Part shown: positions 3,586-38,827 of the stretch, one piece after another
Layout of the letters: each line of letters opens with the position of its first letter
Position numbering within the stretch: the first letter of the stretch is position 1
Source: Candidatus Galloscillospira stercoripullorum
GTDB lineage: Bacteria; Bacillota; Clostridia; Oscillospirales; Oscillospiraceae
Length of the DNA: 64,000 nucleotides
NCBI GenBank assembly: GCA_018715695.1
Contig: DVLB01000027.1
Span: 6,728 to 70,727 of the forward strand
Direction of reading: 5' to 3'
The notes under the pieces: model-generated
What the model was told of the DNA's origin: nothing
What the model saw: the letters and a program-made list of their open reading frames with translations, nothing else
The model's database searches: none
Made by a program: the position numbers and the translations under genes

Positions 3586-3663
3586 AACCCCTTGCCAACT
3601 GGGGAATTTTAGGGTAAAATAGTTTCGCTAAATGTCAAAAGCTTATTTTGGAGGATGAAACCA

Positions 3664-4227
3664 ATGATTTCTGCCAGTGATTTCCGCAACGGCATGACCT
3701 TTGAGATGGACGGCCAGGTGATGCAGGTCGTCGAGTTCCAGCACGTCAAGCCCGGCAAGGGCGCCGCCTTCGTGCGCACCAAGATGAAGAACGTCATCAC
3801 CGGCGGCGTGACCGAGACCTCTTTCAACCCCACCGCCAAGTTCGAGGAGGCCTTCGTGGAGCGCAAGGACATGGAGTACAGCTACAACGACGGCGAGCTC
3901 TATTACTTCATGGACCCCGAGACCTACGATCTGGTGCCCATCGACGGCCATGTGCTGGGCGACAACTTCCGCTTCGTCAAGGAGAACATGCCCTGCAAGA
4001 TCAACTCCTATAAGGGCAAGATCTTCGCTGTGGAGCCCCCCACCTTCGTGGAGCTGGAGGTCACCGAGACCGATCCTGGCTTCAAGGGCGACACCGCCAC
4101 CAACGTCACCAAGCCCGCCACCGTGGAGACCGGCGCTGAGATCAAGGTTCCTCTGTTCATCAACCCCGGCGACAAGATCAAGATCGACACCCGCACCGGC
4201 GAGTACCTGGAGCGCTGCAAGGCTTAA
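3664..4227 (+). CDS. efp: Elongation factor P
   Basis: [18 protein letters not shown]...[16 protein letters not shown] is the canonical EF-P N-terminus. GGAGG at 3650-3654 fits the ATG at 3664 better than the ORF-track ATG at 3655. Confidence 0.95.
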
Positions 4228-4517
4228 GCGTCTGAGCCGTCGCGAACAGCGCGGATGGACCGTAGCGAGGGGGAGGCCAAGGCCGCTTGCGGCATGGGCC
4301 GGAGCCCGAGACGGATGGAAGCCGCGCGTCGTGAGCAGGCGAAGCGTGATAACTTAAGCGTCTGAGCGCCCGGGAGCAGGCGCACAGCGAGCCGCGCAGA
4401 CGAAAAAACAGTTGCGCCGGAGGCGCAAGGCATTTTTCGCGCAGCGGAGAGCAGTGTGCCGTGGCGGAGGGCGCGAAGCGTGATAGTTTAAGCGTCTGAG
4501 CGCCCGGGAGCAGGCGA
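4224..4517. repeat. Three-copy tandem repeat starting at the efp stop codon (period about 130-134 bp)
   Basis: TTAAGCGTCTGAGC occurs at 4224, 4354 and 4488. Copies 2 and 3 share a 43-nt block (4341-4383 and 4475-4517) with 2 mismatches, while the sequence between cores is diverged. Confidence 0.8.
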
Positions 4518-5065: not shown

Positions 5066-5345
5066 TATCGAAAAACCTCCTCGCAGGGAAGTCTCACAGA
5101 GTTCCGTCGTCCGCAGACGACGGAATAAAATCAAAATCCGTTATTTCCGGGGACCTCAAACTCCCTCCTCGCGGCATAGCCGCTGCGGCCTACGCTAAAA
5201 ATGTGCCACCGGCACATTTTCTTTACGCTGCGGCCTCGGAAATGACACTTCTCATGACGGATGGGGTGACAATTTCGTAAGAAATCGAGCCCCGTCCGTC
5301 ATGCAGACTTTTGTTTGAAAAGACCTTTTGGTCTTTTCAAACAGT
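5066..5345 (+). repeat. Hairpin-mosaic intergenic repeat, family A (long copy)
   Basis: Collinear with the reverse complement of 9431..9636. Shared modules are CGCAGGGAAG, the hairpin TTCCGTCGTCCGCAGACGACGGAA, AATAAAATCAAAATCCGT, GGAAATGACACTTCTCATGACGGATGGGGTGAC...CCGTCATGCA and GAAAAGACCTTTTGGTCTTTTC. This copy has an extra internal block of about 85 nt. Confidence 0.85.
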
Positions 5346-9383: not shown

Positions 9384-9430
9384 TCGCTTTCCACCCGGGA
9401 AGGGGGACCCTGATGGTCCCCCTTCCCAGG

Positions 9431-9636
9431 GCTGTCGGAAAAGGCCAAAGGTCTTTTCCGACAAGGGGTTGCATGACGGATAGGGTTCGATTTCTGGCGA
9501 AACTGTCACCCCATCCGTCATGAGAAGTGTCATTTCCAAGGCGCATGTCCTTGGAAATGACGGATTTTGATTTTATTCCGTCGTCCGCTGACGCCGGAAC
9601 TTAAGCGAGGCTTCCCTGCGGGGAGGTCTTGCCAAA
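9431..9636 (-). repeat. Hairpin-mosaic intergenic repeat, family A (short copy, inverted relative to 5066..5345)
   Basis: Its reverse complement aligns module by module with 5066..5345. It is bracketed by two copies of a 31-nt hairpin, GGGAAGGGGGAC-N7-GTCCCCCTTCCC, at 9397-9427 and 9641-9671. Confidence 0.85.
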
Positions 9637-9699
9637 CTGTGGGAAGGGGGACAATCAGGGTCCCCCTTCCCTTTTTTTCATCGGTGTGATATAATGCCT

Positions 9700-11334: not shown

Positions 11335-12606
11335 TCAGTCGTCGTAGTCGGTCTCCCAGTCCAGGATGACGCCGGTGACGGCGTTGATGTCGCACTCATA
11401 CTCGGTGCGGCCGTTGCGCAGCTCCAGCTCGTAGACATAGCGCCCGTCGTCCCGGTCCAGCTCGCACTTGACCACGGTGGTGCCGCTGGGCACCTTGGCA
11501 AGCGCGAGGCGCTTAGCCTCGTCGGCGGTGATGAGGTCGTCGCTGGTGACGGTGCCGGTCTGGCCGCCGATGACATAGTCCTCGATGTCCCGGTCATAGC
11601 TCAGGATGGCGCCGGTGGTGGCGTCGATGTCGTAGTCATACTCGGTGTTGCCCGCGTAGAACTCCACCTCGTACTTGAGGTACCCGTCATCCCGCTCCAG
11701 CTGGTTCTTGAGGACCACGGCGCTGGAGGCGGACACGCCCGCGTGCTTCAGGGCGATCTCCTGGGCCCGGGCGGCGGTGATGGAGGCCTGGGTGGCGGTG
11801 CCGGTCTGGCCGGCCTGATAGCCCTCCACGTCCCGGTCATAGCTCAGGATGGTGCCGCTGGTGGCGTCGATGTCGTAGTCGTACTCGGTGTTGCCCACAT
11901 AGAATTCCACCTCATACTTGAGGCGTCCGTCGTCCCGCTCCAGCTGGTTCTTGAGGATCACGGCGCTGGAGGCGGACACGCCCGCGTGCTTGAGCGCGAT
12001 CTCCTGGGCCTGGGCCGCGGTGATGGAGGCCTGGGTGGCAGTGCCGGAGTTCCACAGGTCGTGGATGGTGTAATTCTCCAGGTCGTGGTCCACGCTGAGG
12101 ATGGCGCCGGTAGTGGCGTCGATGTCGTAGTCATACTCGGTGTTGCCGGAGTAGAACTCCACCTCGTAGACCATGCGCCCGTCGTCGAAGTCCAGGCGGG
12201 CCTTGAGGAAGACGGCCTCGGCGGCGGTGACGCCGGCGTCGGCAAGGGCGATCTCCTTGGCCTTGTCAGCGGTGATATAGGTGGAGGCGGCGGGGTCGGC
12301 GGCCAGGGCCACCTCGCTGGTGGTGAGCTGGGCGGTGTTCTGGTCGGCCACATAGGTCACGTTCAGGCCGGCGGCCTCGCACACGGCCCGGATGGGACCA
12401 TAGATGGTGCCGTTGTAGTTGAAGAGGGCCACTTCGTTGCCCTGCTCATCCTTGGGGGTGAAGCGGGCGCCGTTGATGGTGACGCGGACGTTGTCGCTCA
12501 CGGAGATAGTGCGGCTGGCGGCCAGGGCGGACACGCCAAGACCGATGGCCAGGGCGGAAACCAGGACGCCGGAAACGAGACCTCTGACAAATCCTCTGTT
12601 CTTCAT
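11335..12606 (-). CDS. Secreted protein with an N-terminal copper-amine-oxidase-like stalk domain and four PepSY domains
   Basis: Signal peptide followed by four repeats of the unit ITA..A..IAL..AGV....V.....L..DDG...YEVEF..GNTEYDYDIDA.TG.IL. Confidence 0.8.
   Translation of the reverse strand: MKNRGFVRGLVSGVLVSALAIGLGVSALAASRTISVSDNVRVTINGARFTPKDEQGNEVALFNYNGTIYGPIRAVCEAAGLNVTYVADQNTAQLTTSEVALAADPAASTYITADKAKEIALADAGVTAAEAVFLKARLDFDDGRMVYEVEFYSGNTEYDYDIDATTGAILSVDHDLENYTIHDLWNSGTATQASITAAQAQEIALKHAGVSASSAVILKNQLERDDGRLKYEVEFYVGNTEYDYDIDATSGTILSYDRDVEGYQAGQTGTATQASITAARAQEIALKHAGVSASSAVVLKNQLERDDGYLKYEVEFYAGNTEYDYDIDATTGAILSYDRDIEDYVIGGQTGTVTSDDLITADEAKRLALAKVPSGTTVVKCELDRDDGRYVYELELRNGRTEYECDINAVTGVILDWETDYDD
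11350..12290. repeat. Intragenic tandem duplication (about 240-bp PepSY-coding units)
   Basis: The two central units (about 11590-11830 and 11830-12070) are near-identical at DNA level. The outer units are more diverged. Confidence 0.8.
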
Positions 12607-17937: not shown

Positions 17938-18480
17938 ATGAAAGCAACTGGTATCGTGCGGCGCATCGACGACCTGGGCCGGGTAGTCATTCCCAAGGAG
18001 ATCCGCCGCACCATGCGCATCCGAGAGGGCGACCCTCTGGAGATCTACACCGACAAGGAGGGGGGCGTGATCTTCAAGAAGTACTCCCTCATGGGCGGAC
18101 TCTCCGATTTCGCCGCCCAGATGTGCGAGACGCTCAACAAGACCACCGGGCAGGTGGCCGTCATCACCGACCGGGACGCCTGCATCGCCGTGTCCGGCGC
18201 GCCCCGCCGGGACCTGGTGGACAAGCGCATCTCCGGCGAGCTGGAGCAGCTCATGGAGGGGCGCCAAATCTATCAGCACAAGGCCGGACAGGCTCCCCTC
18301 CCCGTCTGTGAGGACGCCGACCGGTACAGCGTCGTCACCGCCGCTCCCATCCTCTCCGAGGGGGACGTGCTGGGCTGCGTGCTCTTCGTGAGCACCGACG
18401 CCGACACTGAGGGCAGCGAGACCGATTACAAGCTGGCCCAGACCATCGCCGGCTTCCTGGGCCGGCACATGGAGGCATAA
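17938..18480 (+). CDS. spoVT: Stage V sporulation protein T (AbrB-family regulator)
   Basis: MKATGIVRRIDDLGRVVIPKEIRRTMRIREGDPLEIY is the SpoVT/AbrB swapped-hairpin N-terminus, followed by a GAF-like C-terminal domain. Confidence 0.92.
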   Translation: MKATGIVRRIDDLGRVVIPKEIRRTMRIREGDPLEIYTDKEGGVIFKKYSLMGGLSDFAAQMCETLNKTTGQVAVITDRDACIAVSGAPRRDLVDKRISGELEQLMEGRQIYQHKAGQAPLPVCEDADRYSVVTAAPILSEGDVLGCVLFVSTDADTEGSETDYKLAQTIAGFLGRHMEA

Positions 18481-18483
18481 ACG

Positions 18484-18524
18484 AAAAAAGGAGCGGGAGC
18501 TTTGTAAGCTCCCACTCCTTTTTC
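18484..18524. terminator. Bidirectional terminator (spoVT / ancestral asnS end)
   Basis: AAAAAAGGAGCGGGAGC-TTTGTAA-GCTCCCACTCCTTTTT. Confidence 0.75.
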
Positions 18525-18566
18525 GTTTAGAAATCCGCGTTGCCGACGGTGCGGGGGTGAGGAAGG

Positions 18567-18759
18567 CCCCAGCGGGGCACGCCCTGCCGGGGACCCCATT
18601 TTTCATTTGCCCGGGGCAAATGAATTGCCCCGGACCAAGGTTTTGGGCCTGTGGCCCAAAACGCTTGTACGGCGCGCCGCGCCGCCCCATCCAAGATGGG
18701 GCCCCGACGTCCTTCCCCCAAACGCTGGAGAAGATCGCCGGGGCCTCTTACTTCTTACA
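18567..18759 (+). repeat. Hairpin-mosaic repeat, family B, inserted at the asnS 3' end
   Basis: It shares the core GGGGACCCC...(stem)AAATGAATT(stem)...CAAGGTTTTG(stem)N3(stem)CAAAACGCTTG with 37813..37954 and with the reverse complement of 27710..27837. It is flanked by 40-nt copies of the asnS end at 18527-18566 and 18760-18799. Confidence 0.85.
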
Positions 18760-20154
18760 TTAGAAATCCGCGTTGCCCACCGTTCTGGGGTGGGGAAGGA
18801 CGTCGCGGATATTGCCGATGCCGGTGAGGTACATGACCATCCGCTCGAAGCCCAGGCCGAAACCGGCGTGTTTGCAGCCGCCGTAGCGCCGCAGGTCCAG
18901 GTACCACCAGTAATCCTCGGGATTCATACCCAGCTCCTTGATGCGGTTTTCCAGCACACTGAGCCGCTCCTCGCGCTGGGAGCCGCCGATGATCTCCCCG
19001 ATGCCGGGCACCAGGCAGTCGGCAGCGGCCACGGTCTTGCCGTCGTCGTTGAGGCGCATATAGAAGGCCTTGATGTCCTTGGGGTAGTCGGTGACGAAGA
19101 CGGGCTTCTTGAAAATCTGCTCGGTGAGGTAGCGCTCATGCTCAGTCTGCAGGTCGCAGCCCCACTCCACCTTGTACTCGAACTTGTCGTTGTTGGGCTT
19201 GAGCAGCTCGATGGCCTCGGTGTAGCTCACCCGGCCAAAGTCGGAGGATGCCACATGGGTGAGCCGCTCCTTGAGGCCCTTGTCCACGAAGGAGTTGAAG
19301 AAATCCATCTCGTCGGGGCACTTGGCCATGACGGTGTTGATGATGAACTTGATCATCTGCTCGGCCACGTCCATGTCGCCCTGGAGGTCGCAGAAGGCCA
19401 TCTCCGGCTCGATCATCCAGAACTCGGCGGCGTGGCGGGTGGTGTTGGACTTCTCGGCCCGGAAGGTGGGGCCGAAGGTATACACATCCCCGAAGGCCAT
19501 GGCGAAGTTCTCGGCGTTGAGCTGGCCGGAAACGGTCAGGTTGGCACTCTTGCCGAAGAAGTCCTGGCTGTAATCCACGCTGCCGTCCTCGGTGCGGGGC
19601 AGGTTCTCCAGGTCCAGGGTGGTGACCCGGAACATCTCACCGGCGCCCTCGCAGTCGCTGGCGGTGATGATGGGGGTGTGGACGTAGACAAAGCCCCGGT
19701 CCTGGAAGAAAGTGTGGATGGCGTGGGCGGCCACGCTGCGCACCCGGAAGGCGGCGGAGAAGAGGTTGGTGCGGGGCCGCAGGTGAGCGATGGTGCGCAG
19801 GTACTCCACGCTGTGGCGCTTCTTCTGCAGGGGATAGTCAGGGGTGGAGGGGCCCTCCACAGCGATGGAGGCGGCCTTGACCTCCAGAGGCTGCTTGGCC
19901 TCGGGGGTGAGGACCACCGTGCCGGTGACGGACAGGGCGGCGCCCACGTTCTGGGCGGCGATCTCCTTGTAATTGGCCAGCACGCCCGCGTCCATGACGA
20001 TCTGAAGGTTGCGGAAGCAGGAGCCGTCGTTGAGCTCGATAAAGCCGAAGGTCTTCATGTCCCGGATGGTGCGGGCCCAGCCGCAGACGGTGACCGTCTG
20101 CGCGCCAAAGCGCTCCTGGTCGGCGAAAATCTGCGCGATTTTGGTGCGTTCCAA
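18760..20154 (-). CDS. asnS: Asparagine--tRNA ligase
   Basis: 464 aa with an OB anticodon-binding domain and class IIb motifs, ending ...[33 protein letters not shown]. Confidence 0.95.
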
Positions 20155-25612: not shown

Positions 25613-27694
25613 ATGATGAGTTATTCCGCGCAAAACATCCGCAACATCTGCCTGCTGGGGCACGGCGGAAACGGAAAGACCTCCCTGGCAGAGAGCATGC
25701 TCTATCTCACCGGCGGGACCGACCGGCTGGGCAAGACCGCCGACGGGAACACCGTTTGTGACTATGATCCCGAGGAGAACCGCCGTCAGATTTCCATCTC
25801 CCTGTCGGTGGCTCCCGTGGAGTATAACGGCAGCAAGATCAACGTGCTGGACACTCCCGGCTACTTCGACTTCACCGGCGAGGTGATGGAGGCCCTTCAG
25901 GTCTCCGACGCCGCCGTCATCGTCTGCTCGGCCAAGGCCGGCATGAGCGTGGGCGCGGAGAAGGCGTGGAAGTACTGCGAGAAGCGTCGCCTCCCCCGCA
26001 TCCTCTACATCTCCAAGACCGACGAGGAAAATTCCGATTATAACGCCGCCTTCAACACCCTGCGCGAGCGCTTCGGCAAGAACATCGCCCCGGTGGTGGC
26101 CCCCATCTGGGATAAGAGCAAGAAGGTCATCGGCATCATCGACGTGCTCCAGAAGCGGGCCTTCGAGATGGGTGAGAAGGGCGAGCGCATCGAGATCGAG
26201 GTGCCCGAGGATAAGCTGAGCGTGCTCGACGAGCTCTATGAGCGGCTCAAGGAGTCGGTGGCCGAGACCAGCGAGGCCTTCATGGACAAGTTCTTCGCCG
26301 GCGAGGACTTCACCTACGCCGAGATGATCCAGGGCCTGCGCCAGGGCGTGAAGGACCTCTCCCTCTTCCCCGTGGTCTGCGGCAGCGCCTACTCTGGCCT
26401 GGGCACCCGCATGCTGCTGGACACCATCGTGGAGCTGCTGCCCAACCCCCTGGAGGGCCAGCCTCTCATGGGCGAGAACGCCGACGGCGAGATCAGCGAG
26501 TTCGTGGCCGCCCCCGGCGCCCTGCCCGCGGCCTATGTGTTCAAGACCGTCTCCGACCAGTACGGCAAGTACTCCTACCTCAAGGTGGTCTCCGGCTCCA
26601 TCAAGCCCGATATGTCCCTGGTCAACCCCCGCACCGGCGCCACCGAGAAGCTGGGTAGACTGTATGTGATGAAGGGCAAAAAGGCCGAGGAGGTCAAGGA
26701 GCTGCAGTGCGGCGACATCGGCGCCGTGGCCAAAATGGACAAACTGCGCACCGGCGACACCCTGTGTGACGCCCGCAAGGTAGTCAAACTGGAGCCCATC
26801 GACTTCCCCGAGCCCTGCTACTCCGTGGCGGTGACCCCCAAGGTCAAGGGCCAGGAGGACAAGATCGCCGCCGGCCTCACCCGTCTCTCTGAGGAAGACC
26901 CCTCCTTCACCTGGGTCAACAATGCCGAGACCCGGCAGATGGTGGTCTCCGGCGCCGGCGACATGCAGATGGACGTGATCGTCTCCCGGCTCAAGAGCCG
27001 CTTCGGCGTGGACGCCGAGCTCTCCGAGCCCCGGGTGGCCTACCGTGAGAAGATCCGCAAGAAGGTGGAGGTCCAGGGCCGCCACAAGAAGCAGACCGGC
27101 GGCCACGGCCAGTTCGGCGACGTGTGGATGCGCTTCGAGCCCGGCGAGAGCGAGGAGCTGGAGTTCTGCGAGGAGGTCGTGGGCGGCGCCGTGCCCAAGA
27201 ACTACTTCCCCGCGGTGGAGAAGGGCATGCGGGAGGCGGTACTCCACGGCGTGCTGGCCGGCTACCCGGTGGTCTACCTGAAGGCCACCCTCTTCGACGG
27301 CTCCTACCACCCGGTGGACTCTTCGGAAATGGCCTTCAAGACCGCTGTACAGCTGGCCTACAAGGCCGGTATGCCCCAGGCCAACCCCGTGCTGCTGGAG
27401 CCCATCGGCGAGCTGAAGGTCACCATTCCCGACAGCTACATGGGCGACATCATCGGCGACCTCAACAAGCGCCGGGGCCGCGTTATGGGCATGAACCCCG
27501 ACCACGAGGGCAACCAGGTGGTGGAGGCCGAGGTGCCCATGGCCGAGATGAGCCGCTACGCCATCGACCTGCGGTCCATGACCCAGGGCCGGGGCTCCTT
27601 CACCTTCCACTTCGTCCGCTACGAGGACGCCACCCCCGCCGCCCAGGAAAAGGCCATCGCTGCGGCCAAGGCCATGCAGGACGAGGAAGGCTGA
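25613..27694 (+). CDS. Elongation factor G family GTPase (EF-G paralog)
   Basis: G1 GHGGNGKTS, DTPGYFDF and NKxD-equivalent motifs plus domains II-V. AAGGAG lies 8 nt before the ATG at 25613. It is not in the canonical rpsL-rpsG-fusA context. Confidence 0.88.
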   Translation: MMSYSAQNIRNICLLGHGGNGKTSLAESMLYLTGGTDRLGKTADGNTVCDYDPEENRRQISISLSVAPVEYNGSKINVLDTPGYFDFTGEVMEALQVSDAAVIVCSAKAGMSVGAEKAWKYCEKRRLPRILYISKTDEENSDYNAAFNTLRERFGKNIAPVVAPIWDKSKKVIGIIDVLQKRAFEMGEKGERIEIEVPEDKLSVLDELYERLKESVAETSEAFMDKFFAGEDFTYAEMIQGLRQGVKDLSLFPVVCGSAYSGLGTRMLLDTIVELLPNPLEGQPLMGENADGEISEFVAAPGALPAAYVFKTVSDQYGKYSYLKVVSGSIKPDMSLVNPRTGATEKLGRLYVMKGKKAEEVKELQCGDIGAVAKMDKLRTGDTLCDARKVVKLEPIDFPEPCYSVAVTPKVKGQEDKIAAGLTRLSEEDPSFTWVNNAETRQMVVSGAGDMQMDVIVSRLKSRFGVDAELSEPRVAYREKIRKKVEVQGRHKKQTGGHGQFGDVWMRFEPGESEELEFCEEVVGGAVPKNYFPAVEKGMREAVLHGVLAGYPVVYLKATLFDGSYHPVDSSEMAFKTAVQLAYKAGMPQANPVLLEPIGELKVTIPDSYMGDIIGDLNKRRGRVMGMNPDHEGNQVVEAEVPMAEMSRYAIDLRSMTQGRGSFTFHFVRYEDATPAAQEKAIAAAKAMQDEEG

Positions 27695-27709
27695 GGCTCC
27701 TCCCCCCTC

Positions 27710-27837
27710 GGCTGACGCCGCAGGTGCGGCGTCCCAAGCGTTTTGCCGCCAGGCAAAACCTTGATGCCGGGCGGATTCATTCCGCCCGAGCAGATCAAGT
27801 GCGGGGTCCCCAAAAAGCCTCCGCTTTTTGGGGCGCG
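27710..27837 (-). repeat. Hairpin-mosaic repeat, family B, inserted just after the EF-G stop codon
   Basis: Its reverse complement carries the family-B core (GGGGACCCC...GGGCGGAATGAATCCGCCC...CAAGGTTTTGCCTGGCGGCAAAACGCTTG). It is flanked by about 60-nt copies of the EF-G end at 27650-27709 and 27838-27896. Confidence 0.85.
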
Positions 27838-27920
27838 AAAGCTATCGCCGCTGCCAAGGCCATGCAGGATGAGGAGGGCTGAGACTCCTCCCCTCTGTGC
27901 CAAACCAAACCCATAAAGCG

Positions 27921-36804: not shown

Positions 36805-37757
36805 CCATGACCATCCAGGAGGCCGCCGCCTTCCTCGCCGCCCACGACGGCTATCTCATTCTCACCCATGTCCGGCCCGACGGGGACACGGTGGGCTCCG
36901 CCGCCGCTCTGTGCCGGGGTCTCCGGCAGCTGGGCAAGCGGGCCTTCGTGCTGCCCAATCCCGAGGCTACCGCCCTCTTCACCCCCTATTTTGAGGGCCT
37001 GCTCTCTCCCGAGGGCTTTGCGCCTGATACAGTGGTGTCAGTGGACATCGCCGCCCGTTCCCTCTTTCCGAAAAACGCGGAGCCCTATGTGGAGCGGGTG
37101 GATCTGGCCATTGACCACCACCCCTCCCAGGAGTTTTTCGCCCGGGAGACCTGTCTGGACAGCGGTCGGGCTGCCTGCGGGGAGCTGATGTATGACATTC
37201 TCCGGGAGCTGGGCCCCCTGAGCGCCGAGATGGGAGAGGCTCTCTATGTGGCCGTGTCCACCGACTGCGGCTGCTTTGTTTACAGCAACACCACCCCCGA
37301 CACCCACCGGGTGGCGGCCGCGCTCATGGAGACCGGCTTTGACGCCTTCCCTGTAAACCGCCGCTTCTTCCGCACCAAGTCCTTCAAGCGGCTGAAGCTG
37401 GAGGGGATGCTCACCGAGGGCATGGAGCTGCGGGACGGCGGTTCCACCGCTCTGGTCTTCCTCACCATCGCCATGGTGGACGCTCTGCAGGCCACCGAGG
37501 AGGACATGGACGACATCTCCGCCTTCGTAGGTCAGATCGAGGGAGTACGCACCGGGGCCACCCTGAAGGAGACCCGGGACGGGAACGTGAAGATCTCACT
37601 GCGCACCGACCCCGCCGACCTCAACGCCAGCGCCGTGTGCGCTCTGCTGGGGGGCGGCGGCCACGCCGCCGCCAGCGGTGCCATGCTCCGGGGAGTCACC
37701 ATGGCCCAAGCCCGGCAGGCCTTGGTGGACGCCATGGAGAAGGTGCGCCATGGCTGA
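36801..37757 (+). CDS. nrnA: DHH/DHHA1 phosphoesterase (NrnA-type oligoribonuclease/pAp phosphatase)
   Basis: HVRPDGDTVGS, AIDHHPS and GGGHAAASG motifs. The start overlaps the rbfA stop. Confidence 0.85.
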   Translation: MTMTIQEAAAFLAAHDGYLILTHVRPDGDTVGSAAALCRGLRQLGKRAFVLPNPEATALFTPYFEGLLSPEGFAPDTVVSVDIAARSLFPKNAEPYVERVDLAIDHHPSQEFFARETCLDSGRAACGELMYDILRELGPLSAEMGEALYVAVSTDCGCFVYSNTTPDTHRVAAALMETGFDAFPVNRRFFRTKSFKRLKLEGMLTEGMELRDGGSTALVFLTIAMVDALQATEEDMDDISAFVGQIEGVRTGATLKETRDGNVKISLRTDPADLNASAVCALLGGGGHAAASGAMLRGVTMAQARQALVDAMEKVRHG

Positions 37758-37812
37758 CGGCATCCTCATCATCGACAAGCCCGCCGCTTGGACAAGCATG
37801 GACGTATGCGCC

Positions 37813-37954
37813 CCACGCCCAAGGATGGGCGCGGGGACCCCTAAGATTTTCTCATCCTCGGCGGAAATGAATTCCGCCTGCGGCAAGGTTTTGCCTCCGG
37901 CAAAACGCTTGTACGGCGCAAAAGCGCCGGATCTTGGCGCACGGGAGGCTCTCT
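37813..37954 (+). repeat. Hairpin-mosaic repeat, family B, inserted 63 nt into the ancestral truB 5' end
   Basis: It carries the family-B core (GGGGACCCC...GGCGGAAATGAATTCCGCC...CAAGGTTTTGCCTCCGGCAAAACGCTTGTACGGCGC). It is flanked by 63-nt copies of the truB start at 37750-37812 and 37955-38017. Confidence 0.85.
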
Positions 37955-38827
37955 ATGGCTGACGGCATCCTCATCATCGACAAGCCCTCCGGGTGGACAA
38001 GCATGGACGTGTGCGCCAAGCTGCGGGGCGTGTTCCACGAAAAGCGCATCGGCCACGGCGGCACTCTGGACCCCATGGCCACGGGGGTGCTGCCCGTCTT
38101 CATCGGCCGGGCCACCCGGGCAGTGGAGTTTGCGGACAAATCCGACAAGGAATATGTGGCCCAGTTACAACTGGGCGTGATCACCAACACCCAGGATATG
38201 AGCGGCACGGTACTGGAGCAGCGGCCGGTTTCCGTGACGGAGGAGGCGCTGGACGGGGCACTCTCCCTCTTCCGGGGGGAGATCGACCAGGTGCCCCCCA
38301 TGTACTCCGCCATCAAGATCGGCGGACAGAAGCTCTACGAGCTGGCCCGGAAGGGCCATGAGGTGGAGCGGCCGCCCCGGCGGGTCACCATCCGCTCCCT
38401 GACGGTGGAGAGGCGGGAGGCTCCCGACCGCTTCACCCTGCGCGTGCGCTGTTCTAAAGGTACCTATGTACGCACCCTCTGCCACGACATCGGGCAGGCC
38501 CTGGGCTGCGGCGGGTGCATGGCCTCTTTGCGCCGGACCGAGGCGGCGGGCTTTTCTTTGTCAGACGCCGTTACCCTGGAGCAGGTGCTTGAGGCCGAAG
38601 ATCCCCTTGCCCTCCTGCTGCCGGTGGACGCCTATTTTGCCGGCCGGCCCATGCTCATCCTGCGGGGAGCGGAGGAGAAGAAGCTGCGCAACGGCATGAC
38701 CCTGACCGCCCCGCCGCAGCTCTCCCCGGGCGAGCTGCGCGTCTATGGCGAGAACGGGGAATTCCTCGCCCTGTGCCGCTGCGACGGTGGGCGGCTGATT
38801 ACCATCAAAAGTTTTTTCAAGGTGTGA
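37955..38827 (+). CDS. truB: tRNA pseudouridine(55) synthase
   Basis: MADGILIIDKPSGWTSMDV...HGGTLDPMATGVLPV. GGGAGG lies 6 nt before the ATG at 37955. Confidence 0.92.
   Translation: MADGILIIDKPSGWTSMDVCAKLRGVFHEKRIGHGGTLDPMATGVLPVFIGRATRAVEFADKSDKEYVAQLQLGVITNTQDMSGTVLEQRPVSVTEEALDGALSLFRGEIDQVPPMYSAIKIGGQKLYELARKGHEVERPPRRVTIRSLTVERREAPDRFTLRVRCSKGTYVRTLCHDIGQALGCGGCMASLRRTEAAGFSLSDAVTLEQVLEAEDPLALLLPVDAYFAGRPMLILRGAEEKKLRNGMTLTAPPQLSPGELRVYGENGEFLALCRCDGGRLITIKSFFKV

Follow-up and report, generated by a model that had tools for sequence, protein, structure and literature searches.

In the 64,000-nucleotide stretch of Candidatus Galloscillospira stercoripullorum DNA analysed here (contig DVLB01000027.1; hereafter the window), the 3′ end of asnS, the gene for asparagine–tRNA ligase, is present twice, on either side of a non-coding repeat element built as a mosaic of hairpins, and the two copies of the gene end differ by silent changes only (Table 1). 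This pattern is probably explained by recombination and concerted evolution among working asnS alleles, which would keep a displaced and seemingly dead gene end in frame by renewing it from functional sequence.

The duplicated asnS 3′ end

The copy contiguous with asnS (live copy, D_R; 18760–18799) and the displaced copy (D_L; 18527–18566) are identical at 35 of 40 nucleotides, and both translate to the same 12 residues followed by a stop codon. The differences, at positions 18545, 18548, 18551, 18553 and 18560, fall in four codons (live/displaced: CCC/CCT, AGA/CGC, ACG/ACC and GTG/GTC), and all five are silent; weaker similarity (6 of 9 nucleotides matching) extends for 9 nucleotides beyond the stop codon. 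The displaced end is located 3 nucleotides from the bidirectional terminator at 18485–18523. The repeat pair is significant in a self-comparison of the whole window (E = 3.7e-6), and direct reading of the window confirms what a first-pass annotation had described, a gene end present twice around a repeat with five silent differences, the insert being 193 bp long. The same structure was found in another 15 metagenome contigs from this species (contigs and loci outside the window are designated by L numbers), which excludes an assembly artefact. Judged by AsnS similarity, the organism is related to Pseudoflavonifractor capillosus (93–94%) and to Flavonifractor (91%).

Excess of silent differences across the repeat family

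Pattern scans of metagenome and viral (IMG/VR) sequences for the element core gave 156 matches, including 120 metagenome loci; 102 flanking-duplication units were recognised, at 66 distinct insertion sites. At 23 independent loci with a duplicated 3′ gene end, the copies differ by 64 synonymous and 11 nonsynonymous codon differences, against an expected silent share of 0.22 for random change and of 0.36 for a drifting dead copy paired with a constrained live copy (binomial p = 3e-18, or 1e-14 without the window loci). The claim of the first-pass annotation that neutral decay of a dead copy is incompatible with silent-only changes therefore holds family-wide. The annotation had also named what would tell against it, namely a family without duplications elsewhere or with nonsynonymous changes at the level of chance; other family copies are in fact duplicated, and their differences are overwhelmingly synonymous.

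It is hardly credible that the displaced copy simply drifts, with the silent pattern arising by coincidence or from faster mutation at third positions rich in G+C. The asnS pair on its own has just five differences, third positions are 85–90% G+C, and G/C sites mutate faster, all of which speak for such an origin. However, the family-wide ratio departs far from the 0.36 expected, the G+C effect lifts the third-position share (by our own estimate) merely from about 33% to about 40%, and the identical variants occur as alleles in working genes. Gene conversion combined with selection was also rejected as the sole cause, since by our own calculation it predicts just ~40% silent differences, so that imported variation is also needed.

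Working alleles and imported tracts in relatives

In the P. capillosus group, the sister group, the insertion is a presence/absence polymorphism: three contigs (L237, L239 and L240) carry a homologous element inserted at the same nucleotide of asnS. A comparison of asnS ends from relatives, which the first-pass annotation had suggested as a way of finding empty sites, reveals exact empty sites in two others of this group (L241 and L242); L240, L241 and L242 encode identical AsnS proteins. The working asnS ends read CGT ACT in L241, AGA ACC in L242, and CCT CAC CCC CGC ACT GTG in the live copy of L239, the last being only two silent differences away from the displaced copy of the window. L240 has CGT in its live copy and AGA in its displaced copy, which is the opposite of the arrangement in the window. 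The occurrence of AGA and CGY in working ends, and on either side of the element, indicates that the ‘two-step’ switch of the Arg codon is an old allelic dimorphism of working asnS genes. In two further contigs of the P. capillosus group (L236 and L238) the place between asnS and the terminator is taken by an unrelated 84-codon open reading frame (ORF) instead of the repeat; the 3′ flank of asnS is thus variable.

Short tracts, roughly 10–20% divergent, are demonstrably imported at such loci. In L205, ~270 nucleotides, made up of outer flank, displaced copy and the element's first hairpin (hp0), are ~99% identical to another lineage, bar one 26-nucleotide indel, and the sequence around this tract is mostly 70–92% identical to that same lineage. 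The differences between the two gene-end copies of L205 (GAC/GAT, TAT/TAC, CCC/CCT and CTC/TTA) are exactly the allelic differences between the two lineages. At the asnS locus itself, the same-species contig L235 is 97–100% identical to the window, except in a patch of ~550 nucleotides within asnS (19100–19640), where identity falls to 78–93%.

The insertion is old. The downstream region including the element is ~82% identical between the window and P. capillosus, and identity at asnS third positions is 82%; as the two divergences are equal, the intact frame of the displaced copy requires continuing renewal.

State of the displaced copy within the species

The displaced asnS copy has lost its stop codon, together with a linked second change, in L002, L220 and L223, i.e. 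in 3 of the 16 same-species sequences (the window and the 15 further contigs). A similar stop loss is seen in L107, and stop losses or amino-acid changes are found in displaced copies at other loci. Displaced copies are therefore not under coding selection now. Of three explanations offered in the first-pass annotation, coding selection on both copies is thus not supported for the present, given the stop losses in three contigs, and survives only in a historical sense, in that the displaced sequence was recently part of working alleles.

Exchange between the two copies is evident. Within the species the displaced asnS copy occurs as two haplotypes; in 4 of the 16 sequences it equals the live copy at all five sites, and three of these carry a new G>A change in both copies (18557 and 18790). 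A silent GT[A/G] site of truB is likewise polymorphic in both copies at that locus, where L227 and L232 also have a second element in tandem. At one insertion site sampled from three lineages of ~88% identity, lineage-specific changes are present in both copies, a pattern indicative of concerted evolution. This resembles the concerted evolution of a gene with a nearby pseudogene, in which a non-functional copy stays gene-like through exchange with a selected one; it differs in that the copies here are just 40–130 bp long and ~200 bp apart, and that alleles from other strains seem to supply most of the differences.

The empty sites raise another explanation, in which the element is precisely lost, by recombination between the duplicates or by dedicated excision, such that the displaced copy regularly becomes a working end again and both copies are coding-selected. 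Exact empty sites among strains with an identical AsnS protein are as expected for this, as are the resemblance of the empty L241 allele to a live/dead hybrid of an L240-type filled allele, the variation of unit copy number within species, and the intact frame of both copies over ~0.2 divergence per silent site. Nonetheless, we regard it as quite improbable: stop losses and nonsynonymous changes segregate in displaced copies, every sampled contig of the window's species is filled, and recombinational loss is irreversible within a lineage unless the element is re-acquired, in which case this explanation merges at the population level with the one that we prefer.

A model for the origin and renewal of the displaced end

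We propose that asnS was hit, within its last 12 codons, by a mobile repeat of ~190 bp that is non-coding and rich in hairpins, and that such insertions duplicate 30–130 bp of the target, leaving the gene end present twice. The copy at the right end of the element would remain joined to the gene, which stays intact, whilst the other would come to lie, displaced, beside the old terminator. This second copy would then be homogenised with the live copy through gene conversion or unequal crossing-over, and overwritten by homologous recombination with working asnS ends of other strains or species, whether from filled or from empty alleles; the recombination tracts would tend to end in or at the element. 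The differences between the copies would be silent since they are mostly imported allelic variants, the AGA/CGC pair included, that have already passed purifying selection. We infer that the particular asnS haplotype of the window arose by such an import and, from the synonymous fraction, that recombination outweighs mutation roughly 6-fold or more.

The model is closest to the second explanation of the first-pass annotation, in which a divergent allele replaced one copy through recombination ending at the insert. It is the best supported of the three, with the amendment that the foreign copy appears to be the displaced one and not, as had been supposed, the live one, as judged from the L205 tract and from an inverted sequence within the element that matches the live copy at 13 of the 16 informative sites (see below).

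Several observations weigh against this model. The duplicated 5′ gene ends show a weaker excess (six synonymous to four nonsynonymous differences), and the 6-fold figure is an estimate only. All 25 same-species contigs (15 for asnS, nine for truB and one for a gene encoding a product like elongation factor G, EF-G) are filled, so that empty donors are not seen in the species, and neither an outgroup nor an empty allele with the spoVT context was found, such that the direction of change at the asnS of the window is inferred. The flank beside the displaced asnS copy is no more divergent between haplotypes within the species, implying that import at asnS, if any, was very short or is old. The haplotype seen in 4 of the 16 sequences could itself be derived, by conversion from the live copy, which would leave the five-difference haplotype older than the sampled diversity of the species. 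Finally, recombination accounts neither for the inverted sequence and its covariation with the target nor for the strict polarity of the intact gene relative to the element.

An inverted copy of the target at the inner duplication boundary

Near its right end the element carries a 12–17 nucleotide inverted copy of the target (hereafter denoted IC), centred on the inner boundary of the right-hand duplicate. An IC score of at least 10 is reached at 59% of 54 sites, compared with 0–2% in four controls, and identity to the target exceeds 0.8 from −6 to +2 around the boundary. As the IC includes bases outside the duplicate, it was copied from uninterrupted target sequence. In orthologous sets of asnS (GGGGAAGG/GGGGCAGG), truB, lepA and ABC-F genes, the IC changes in step with silent changes of the target. 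The gene-body half of the IC, which might bear the signature of a donor in its mismatches, is only ~5 nucleotides long and too short to tell. In the window, the asnS IC (18702–18718) pairs with 18792–18808 and also with 18727–18745, the latter pairing forming a hairpin 14 nucleotides past the live asnS stop codon.

The IC bears most directly on an explanation in which the element, with the IC as a nucleic-acid guide and with a surrogate gene end, inserts at a guide-matched site and displaces the native end, the two copies then being donor and recipient alleles. This would account for the position of the IC, its agreement with the live copy, its covariation with the target in all four gene sets, and the near-constant location of the intact gene on the IC side. 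It is also in keeping with the use of the same asnS nucleotide in two species with different downstream genes (in diverged hosts truB and lepA show this too, as do L198 and L203), with the ends of 11 of 23 3′-end duplications lying 0–2 nucleotides from the stop codon, with the existence of tandem arrays, and with the precedent of prophage e14 at Escherichia coli icd, where icd and the displaced icdC show silent differences (PMC13626634). However, live copies (truB, cluster 1) resemble the displaced copy of their own host rather than live copies in other hosts, the duplications incorporate host-specific non-coding sequence and terminators (L186, L198 and L203), and the break in ancestry in L205 lies inside the element rather than at the junction of live copy and gene. 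Neither AGA nor CGY alleles are confined to one side of the element, the divergence of the element region equals the synonymous divergence of the hosts and so does not point to recent transfer, no partner enzyme was identified among the ORFs within 4 kb of any copy, and the copy at the EF-G-like gene has no IC. We therefore think this explanation unlikely. The host-specific terminators within duplicates imply that the duplication is made from local DNA and generated by the element. The first explanation of the first-pass annotation, that the element arrives with or generates a surrogate end, is accordingly upheld in its second half; there is no sign of arrival with a foreign gene end, as live copies match their own host and alleles lie on either side.

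Two further schemes were considered and rejected. Under Campbell-type integration of a circle carrying a gene end, the IC should match the displaced copy close to the junction, but the reverse holds; transfer of the element via a crossover inside the duplicate fails as a general cause, as differences reach to 3 nucleotides from the junction.

The IC, its covariation with the target and the fixed side of the intact gene are probably new features, and the IC and its maintenance are without precedent known to us. As to how the insertion is made, our leading guesses are that breaks staggered by 30–130 nucleotides are combined, at one end, with template switching or snap-back synthesis, or that the IC acts in the manner of a guide. 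There is a low but appreciable chance that the repeats are a new kind of non-autonomous mobile element, in which the IC directs insertion or is written by it, possibly through an RNA or single-stranded intermediate and template switching. Such an element would home to the same nucleotide in orthologous gene ends and build a 30–130 bp duplicate that keeps the gene intact, and the maintained complementarity would serve re-homing after loss or a regulatory pairing with the mRNA of the host.

Architecture and distribution of the repeat family

Family members are found in Pseudoflavonifractor/Flavonifractor-like gut Oscillospiraceae and in viral (IMG/VR) contigs, and they hit the ends of asnS, truB, lepA, uvrB-like, ABC-F and EF-G-like genes. 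Most copies with enough flanking sequence have direct repeats of 30–130 bp (overall range 26 to ~130 bp, depending on the site) around an insert of 85–190 bp. The remark of the first-pass annotation that 40 nucleotides exceeds ordinary target-site duplications by far thus stands, and long duplications are typical of the family. In element orientation the order at a locus is outer flank, duplicate, hairpins and linker ([hp0][linker][hp1][hp2][hp3](hp4)), IC, 0–45 nucleotides, duplicate and gene body. Whether the duplicated end is 3′ or 5′, the intact gene lies in almost all cases on the IC side of the element. Unpaired motifs (GGGGACCCC, an AATGAAT loop and CAAGGTTTTG...CAAAACGCTTG) are conserved, and the stems vary between copies yet remain paired; the antisense strand of the element folds slightly better, with more G-U pairs. 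Among 66 representatives, the left end is a variable hairpin beginning (N)CCCCA, the right end varies in length and closes with the target-derived inverted copy, and no common terminal inverted repeat was seen.

No Rfam family was detected at gathering score in the window, and nothing relevant at E <= 10 in 18400–18900. Among the ORFs within 4 kb of the 156 copies only host genes recur, and no recurrent transposase-like family or recombinase was found (the ORF clusters were not run against Pfam). No family copies were present in 1.5 Mb of flanking sequence from AsnS relatives in the genome collection (<=91% identity), none of which has spoVT downstream. A search of the literature for earlier descriptions of such an element gave no relevant result; the family looks undescribed, and we class it with the short non-autonomous repeats.

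The spacing between duplicates is a multiple of three at just 9 of 57 sites (L095–L214 and the window), and at 2 of 23 in the 3′-end class; in-frame spacing seems to be avoided. Read-through or in-frame translation of the displaced asnS copy was rejected on these grounds, the two copies being 233 nucleotides apart, which is not a multiple of three.

L198 and L203 share the same inner boundary in orthologous genes of two hosts, and their duplicates contain unrelated host-specific terminators; they represent either independent insertions at one nucleotide or a very old insertion with parallel turnover. In L177, L186 and L203 the outer duplication boundary lies immediately beyond the T-run of the terminator of the gene itself (at 3 of 58 sites, compared with 4 of 464 control positions), hinting that this boundary is set by an RNA 3′ end or by the terminator hairpin. 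Copies without duplications mostly lie after tRNA terminators or between phage genes; in at least eight (L097, L100, L108, L126, L149, L174, L189 and L191) the element directly follows the terminator of a tRNA gene, which occupies the place of hp0.

One hybrid locus (L105, ~2460–2900) consists of the displaced end of one gene (TCAATCGCTG...), a single element, and then the inverted copy and live start of lepA, which suggests recombination between elements at two different sites. Tandem arrays of element plus duplicate occur at truB (L227 and L232) and in L087, L106, L133–L135, L153, L182, L195 and L212, and the copy number is polymorphic within a species. In the IMG/VR contigs L086–L088 and L090–L093, family copies lie between viral genes (putative phage or prophage), some with duplications of 55–95 nucleotides; these are near-identical, which suggests that the family has been active recently and may travel between hosts in this way.

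Comparison with known systems

The closest parallel in outline is e14 / phage 21 at E. coli icd, which likewise leaves a gene end present twice (icd and the displaced icdC) with mainly silent differences, and where loss of the element recombines the gene with the fragment (PMC13626634). As there, a housekeeping gene that is hit inside its 3′ end remains intact, and the repeat runs from the crossover point to the gene end. e14 is, however, a 15 kb prophage that has its own integrase and brings a substitute end, whereas the insert here is 130–190 bp long and non-coding, is flanked by a duplicate made from local sequence and occurs in dozens of different genes, the silent differences coming from later recombination. 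The combination of a foreign live end with a native displaced end is not observed (the terminators are host-specific, live copies match their own host, and alleles lie on either side), nor is there an integrase or excisionase, the insert having no coding capacity and no recombinase recurring nearby.

Long target duplications are known from IS1634 and IS1549 (IS1634 family), in which they vary from 8 to 514 bp, without an accepted mechanism (PMC2266710). The formation of long direct repeats of variable length on insertion is shared with our family. These are 1.5–2 kb insertion sequences of Mycoplasma and Mycobacterium, with a DDE transposase and terminal inverted repeats, neither of which is seen here, the repeats described here being instead a mosaic of covarying hairpins. 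To our knowledge, an inverted target copy at one junction has not been reported for IS1634 or IS1549.

In being short, non-coding, hairpin-forming and multicopy, in lying at gene ends and in their possible co-transcription with flanking genes, the elements resemble MITEs (miniature inverted-repeat transposable elements) and REP-type repeats (REP/BIME, ERIC, Correia, RUP and BOX). Such repeats, whose termini are defined or which have inverted repeats, make no duplication or one of 2–10 bp and leave coding ends unduplicated; we know of none that carries an inverted target copy. By contrast, terminal inverted repeats at both ends are lacking here, and the duplication is of 26 to ~130 bp rather than a fixed 2–10 bp. 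REP/BIME-REPIN sequences are 20–40 bp palindromes with GTAG/CGTC heads and a RAYT transposase, whereas here there is a mosaic of ~100 nucleotides with the motifs GGGGACCCC, AATGAAT and CAAGGTTTTG/CAAAACGCTTG.

The IC, as a short internal complement across the insertion point, recalls elements that use guides, namely group II introns (exon-binding site 1, EBS1, and delta), IS200/IS605 (tetranucleotides) and IS110 (bridge RNA), its arrangement being like that of delta-EBS1 against ligated exons. The location of some family copies directly after intrinsic terminators is a further likeness, to group IIC introns. The elements differ in having neither a ribozyme or Rfam match nor an associated protein found here; in addition, we know of no long duplication made by group II introns, IS200/IS605 or IS110, and of no guide among them that is rewritten for each new target. 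A group II intron, class C included, was rejected, as no D5/D6 ribozyme was recognised and no Rfam family reached the gathering score in the window. An IS200/IS605-derived palindrome element was likewise rejected, given the long duplications and the targets that are unrelated in sequence and have no fixed site of 4–5 nucleotides. A diversity-generating retroelement does not fit either, the differences being C/T, A/C and G/C, silent and not adenine-specific, with three unrelated housekeeping genes hit.

Other repeats in the window

Two further family copies are present in the window, at the 3′ end of an EF-G-like gene and at the 5′ end of truB (Table 1). The truB copies (37750–37812 and 37955–38017) show four nucleotide differences and two amino-acid changes. 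The displaced truB start codon opens a 70-codon ORF (37750–37962) that crosses the element and ends at a TGA overlapping the live truB ATG (ATGGCTGA). This ORF reproduces the stop/start overlap of the upstream DHH gene with truB and is annotated by gene callers in six contigs; perhaps it preserves translational coupling.

A second repeat family occurs at 9432–9630, with an inverted copy at 5072–5344. The first of these lies between duplicated terminator hairpins (9397–9427 and 9641–9671), so that long flanking duplications may extend beyond one repeat family. A 58-nucleotide direct repeat (4325–4382 and 4460–4516, ~95% identical) surrounds a 77-nucleotide hairpin insert, with a third, partial copy (CTTAAGCGTCTGAGC) at 4223–4237, at the stop of the ORF 3655–4227. 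Internal repeats with a period of ~240 nucleotides and 68–77% identity are found inside a long ORF at 11362–12299.

Table 1. Coordinates of the asnS locus and of the other copies of the repeat family in the window (hp, hairpin; IC, inverted copy of the target; HMM, hidden Markov model).
Feature	Position	Strand	Evidence or remarks
spoVT-like gene	17938..18480	+	ORF; MazE_antitoxin and SpoVT_C (Pfam families of identical protein); convergent with asnS
Bidirectional intrinsic terminator, common to spoVT and the original asnS end	18485..18523		Inverted repeat with 18-nt arms (94% complementary); terminator-like site
Displaced (‘dead’) copy of the last 12 asnS codons and stop (D_L)	18527..18566	-	Similarity may reach 18518
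Hairpin-mosaic repeat element, non-coding, 193 bp	18567..18759	+	Three-copy alignment, motif coordinates, folds, family HMM matches
Element part: hp0	18567..18592		
Element part: GGGGACCCC	18589..18597		
Element part: hp1 with AATGAAT loop	18619..18625		
Element part: CAAGGTTTTG..CAAAACGCTTG hairpin	18636..18667		
Element part: hp3	18671..18683		
Element part: hp4	18684..18702		
Element part: tail	18703..18759		
IC, inverted copy of asnS sequence straddling the inner duplication boundary	18702..18718	+	Inverted-repeat search, family statistics
Live copy, last 12 codons and stop (D_R), contiguous with asnS	18760..18799	-	
asnS stretch complementary to IC	18792..18808	-	Spans the D_R / gene-body boundary, 18799/18800
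asnS (asparagine--tRNA ligase, 464 aa)	18760..20154	-	Pfam tRNA_anti-codon and tRNA-synt_2; named homologues
Divergent imported tract within asnS	19100..19640	-	Sliding identity against same-species contig L235
Live 3′ end (14 codons, stop and 14 nt) of EF-G-like gene 25613-27694	27650..27708	+	
Second family copy, reverse orientation	27709..27837	-	No recognisable IC
Displaced EF-G-like 3′ end	27838..27896	+	6 coding differences, all synonymous, plus 2 past the stop
Displaced truB 5′ end (start codon and 20 codons)	37750..37812	+	Overlaps stop of upstream DHH-family gene (ATGGCTGA)
Third family copy	37813..37954	+	IC ~37924-37942; right end provides GGGAGG ahead of live truB start
Live truB 5′ end (D_R)	37955..38017	+	

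Implications

These observations suggest that a ‘dead’ gene fragment can hold a perfect reading frame without selection on itself, refreshed from working alleles in a highly recombining gut bacterium. Silent-only differences in such a refreshed gene end are no proof of function, which calls for caution in scans based on the ratio of nonsynonymous to synonymous substitution rates (dN/dS). We know of no family described with the combination of traits seen here, i.e. a widespread repeat of human-gut Oscillospiraceae and viral contigs at the ends of essential genes, with a long gene-preserving duplication and an inverted sequence that derives from the target and remains complementary to the gene in different species. 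Following it up might reveal a novel mechanism of insertion or a cis-regulatory RNA module. The elements mark recombination breakpoints and tandem amplification beside core genes, and may cause them.

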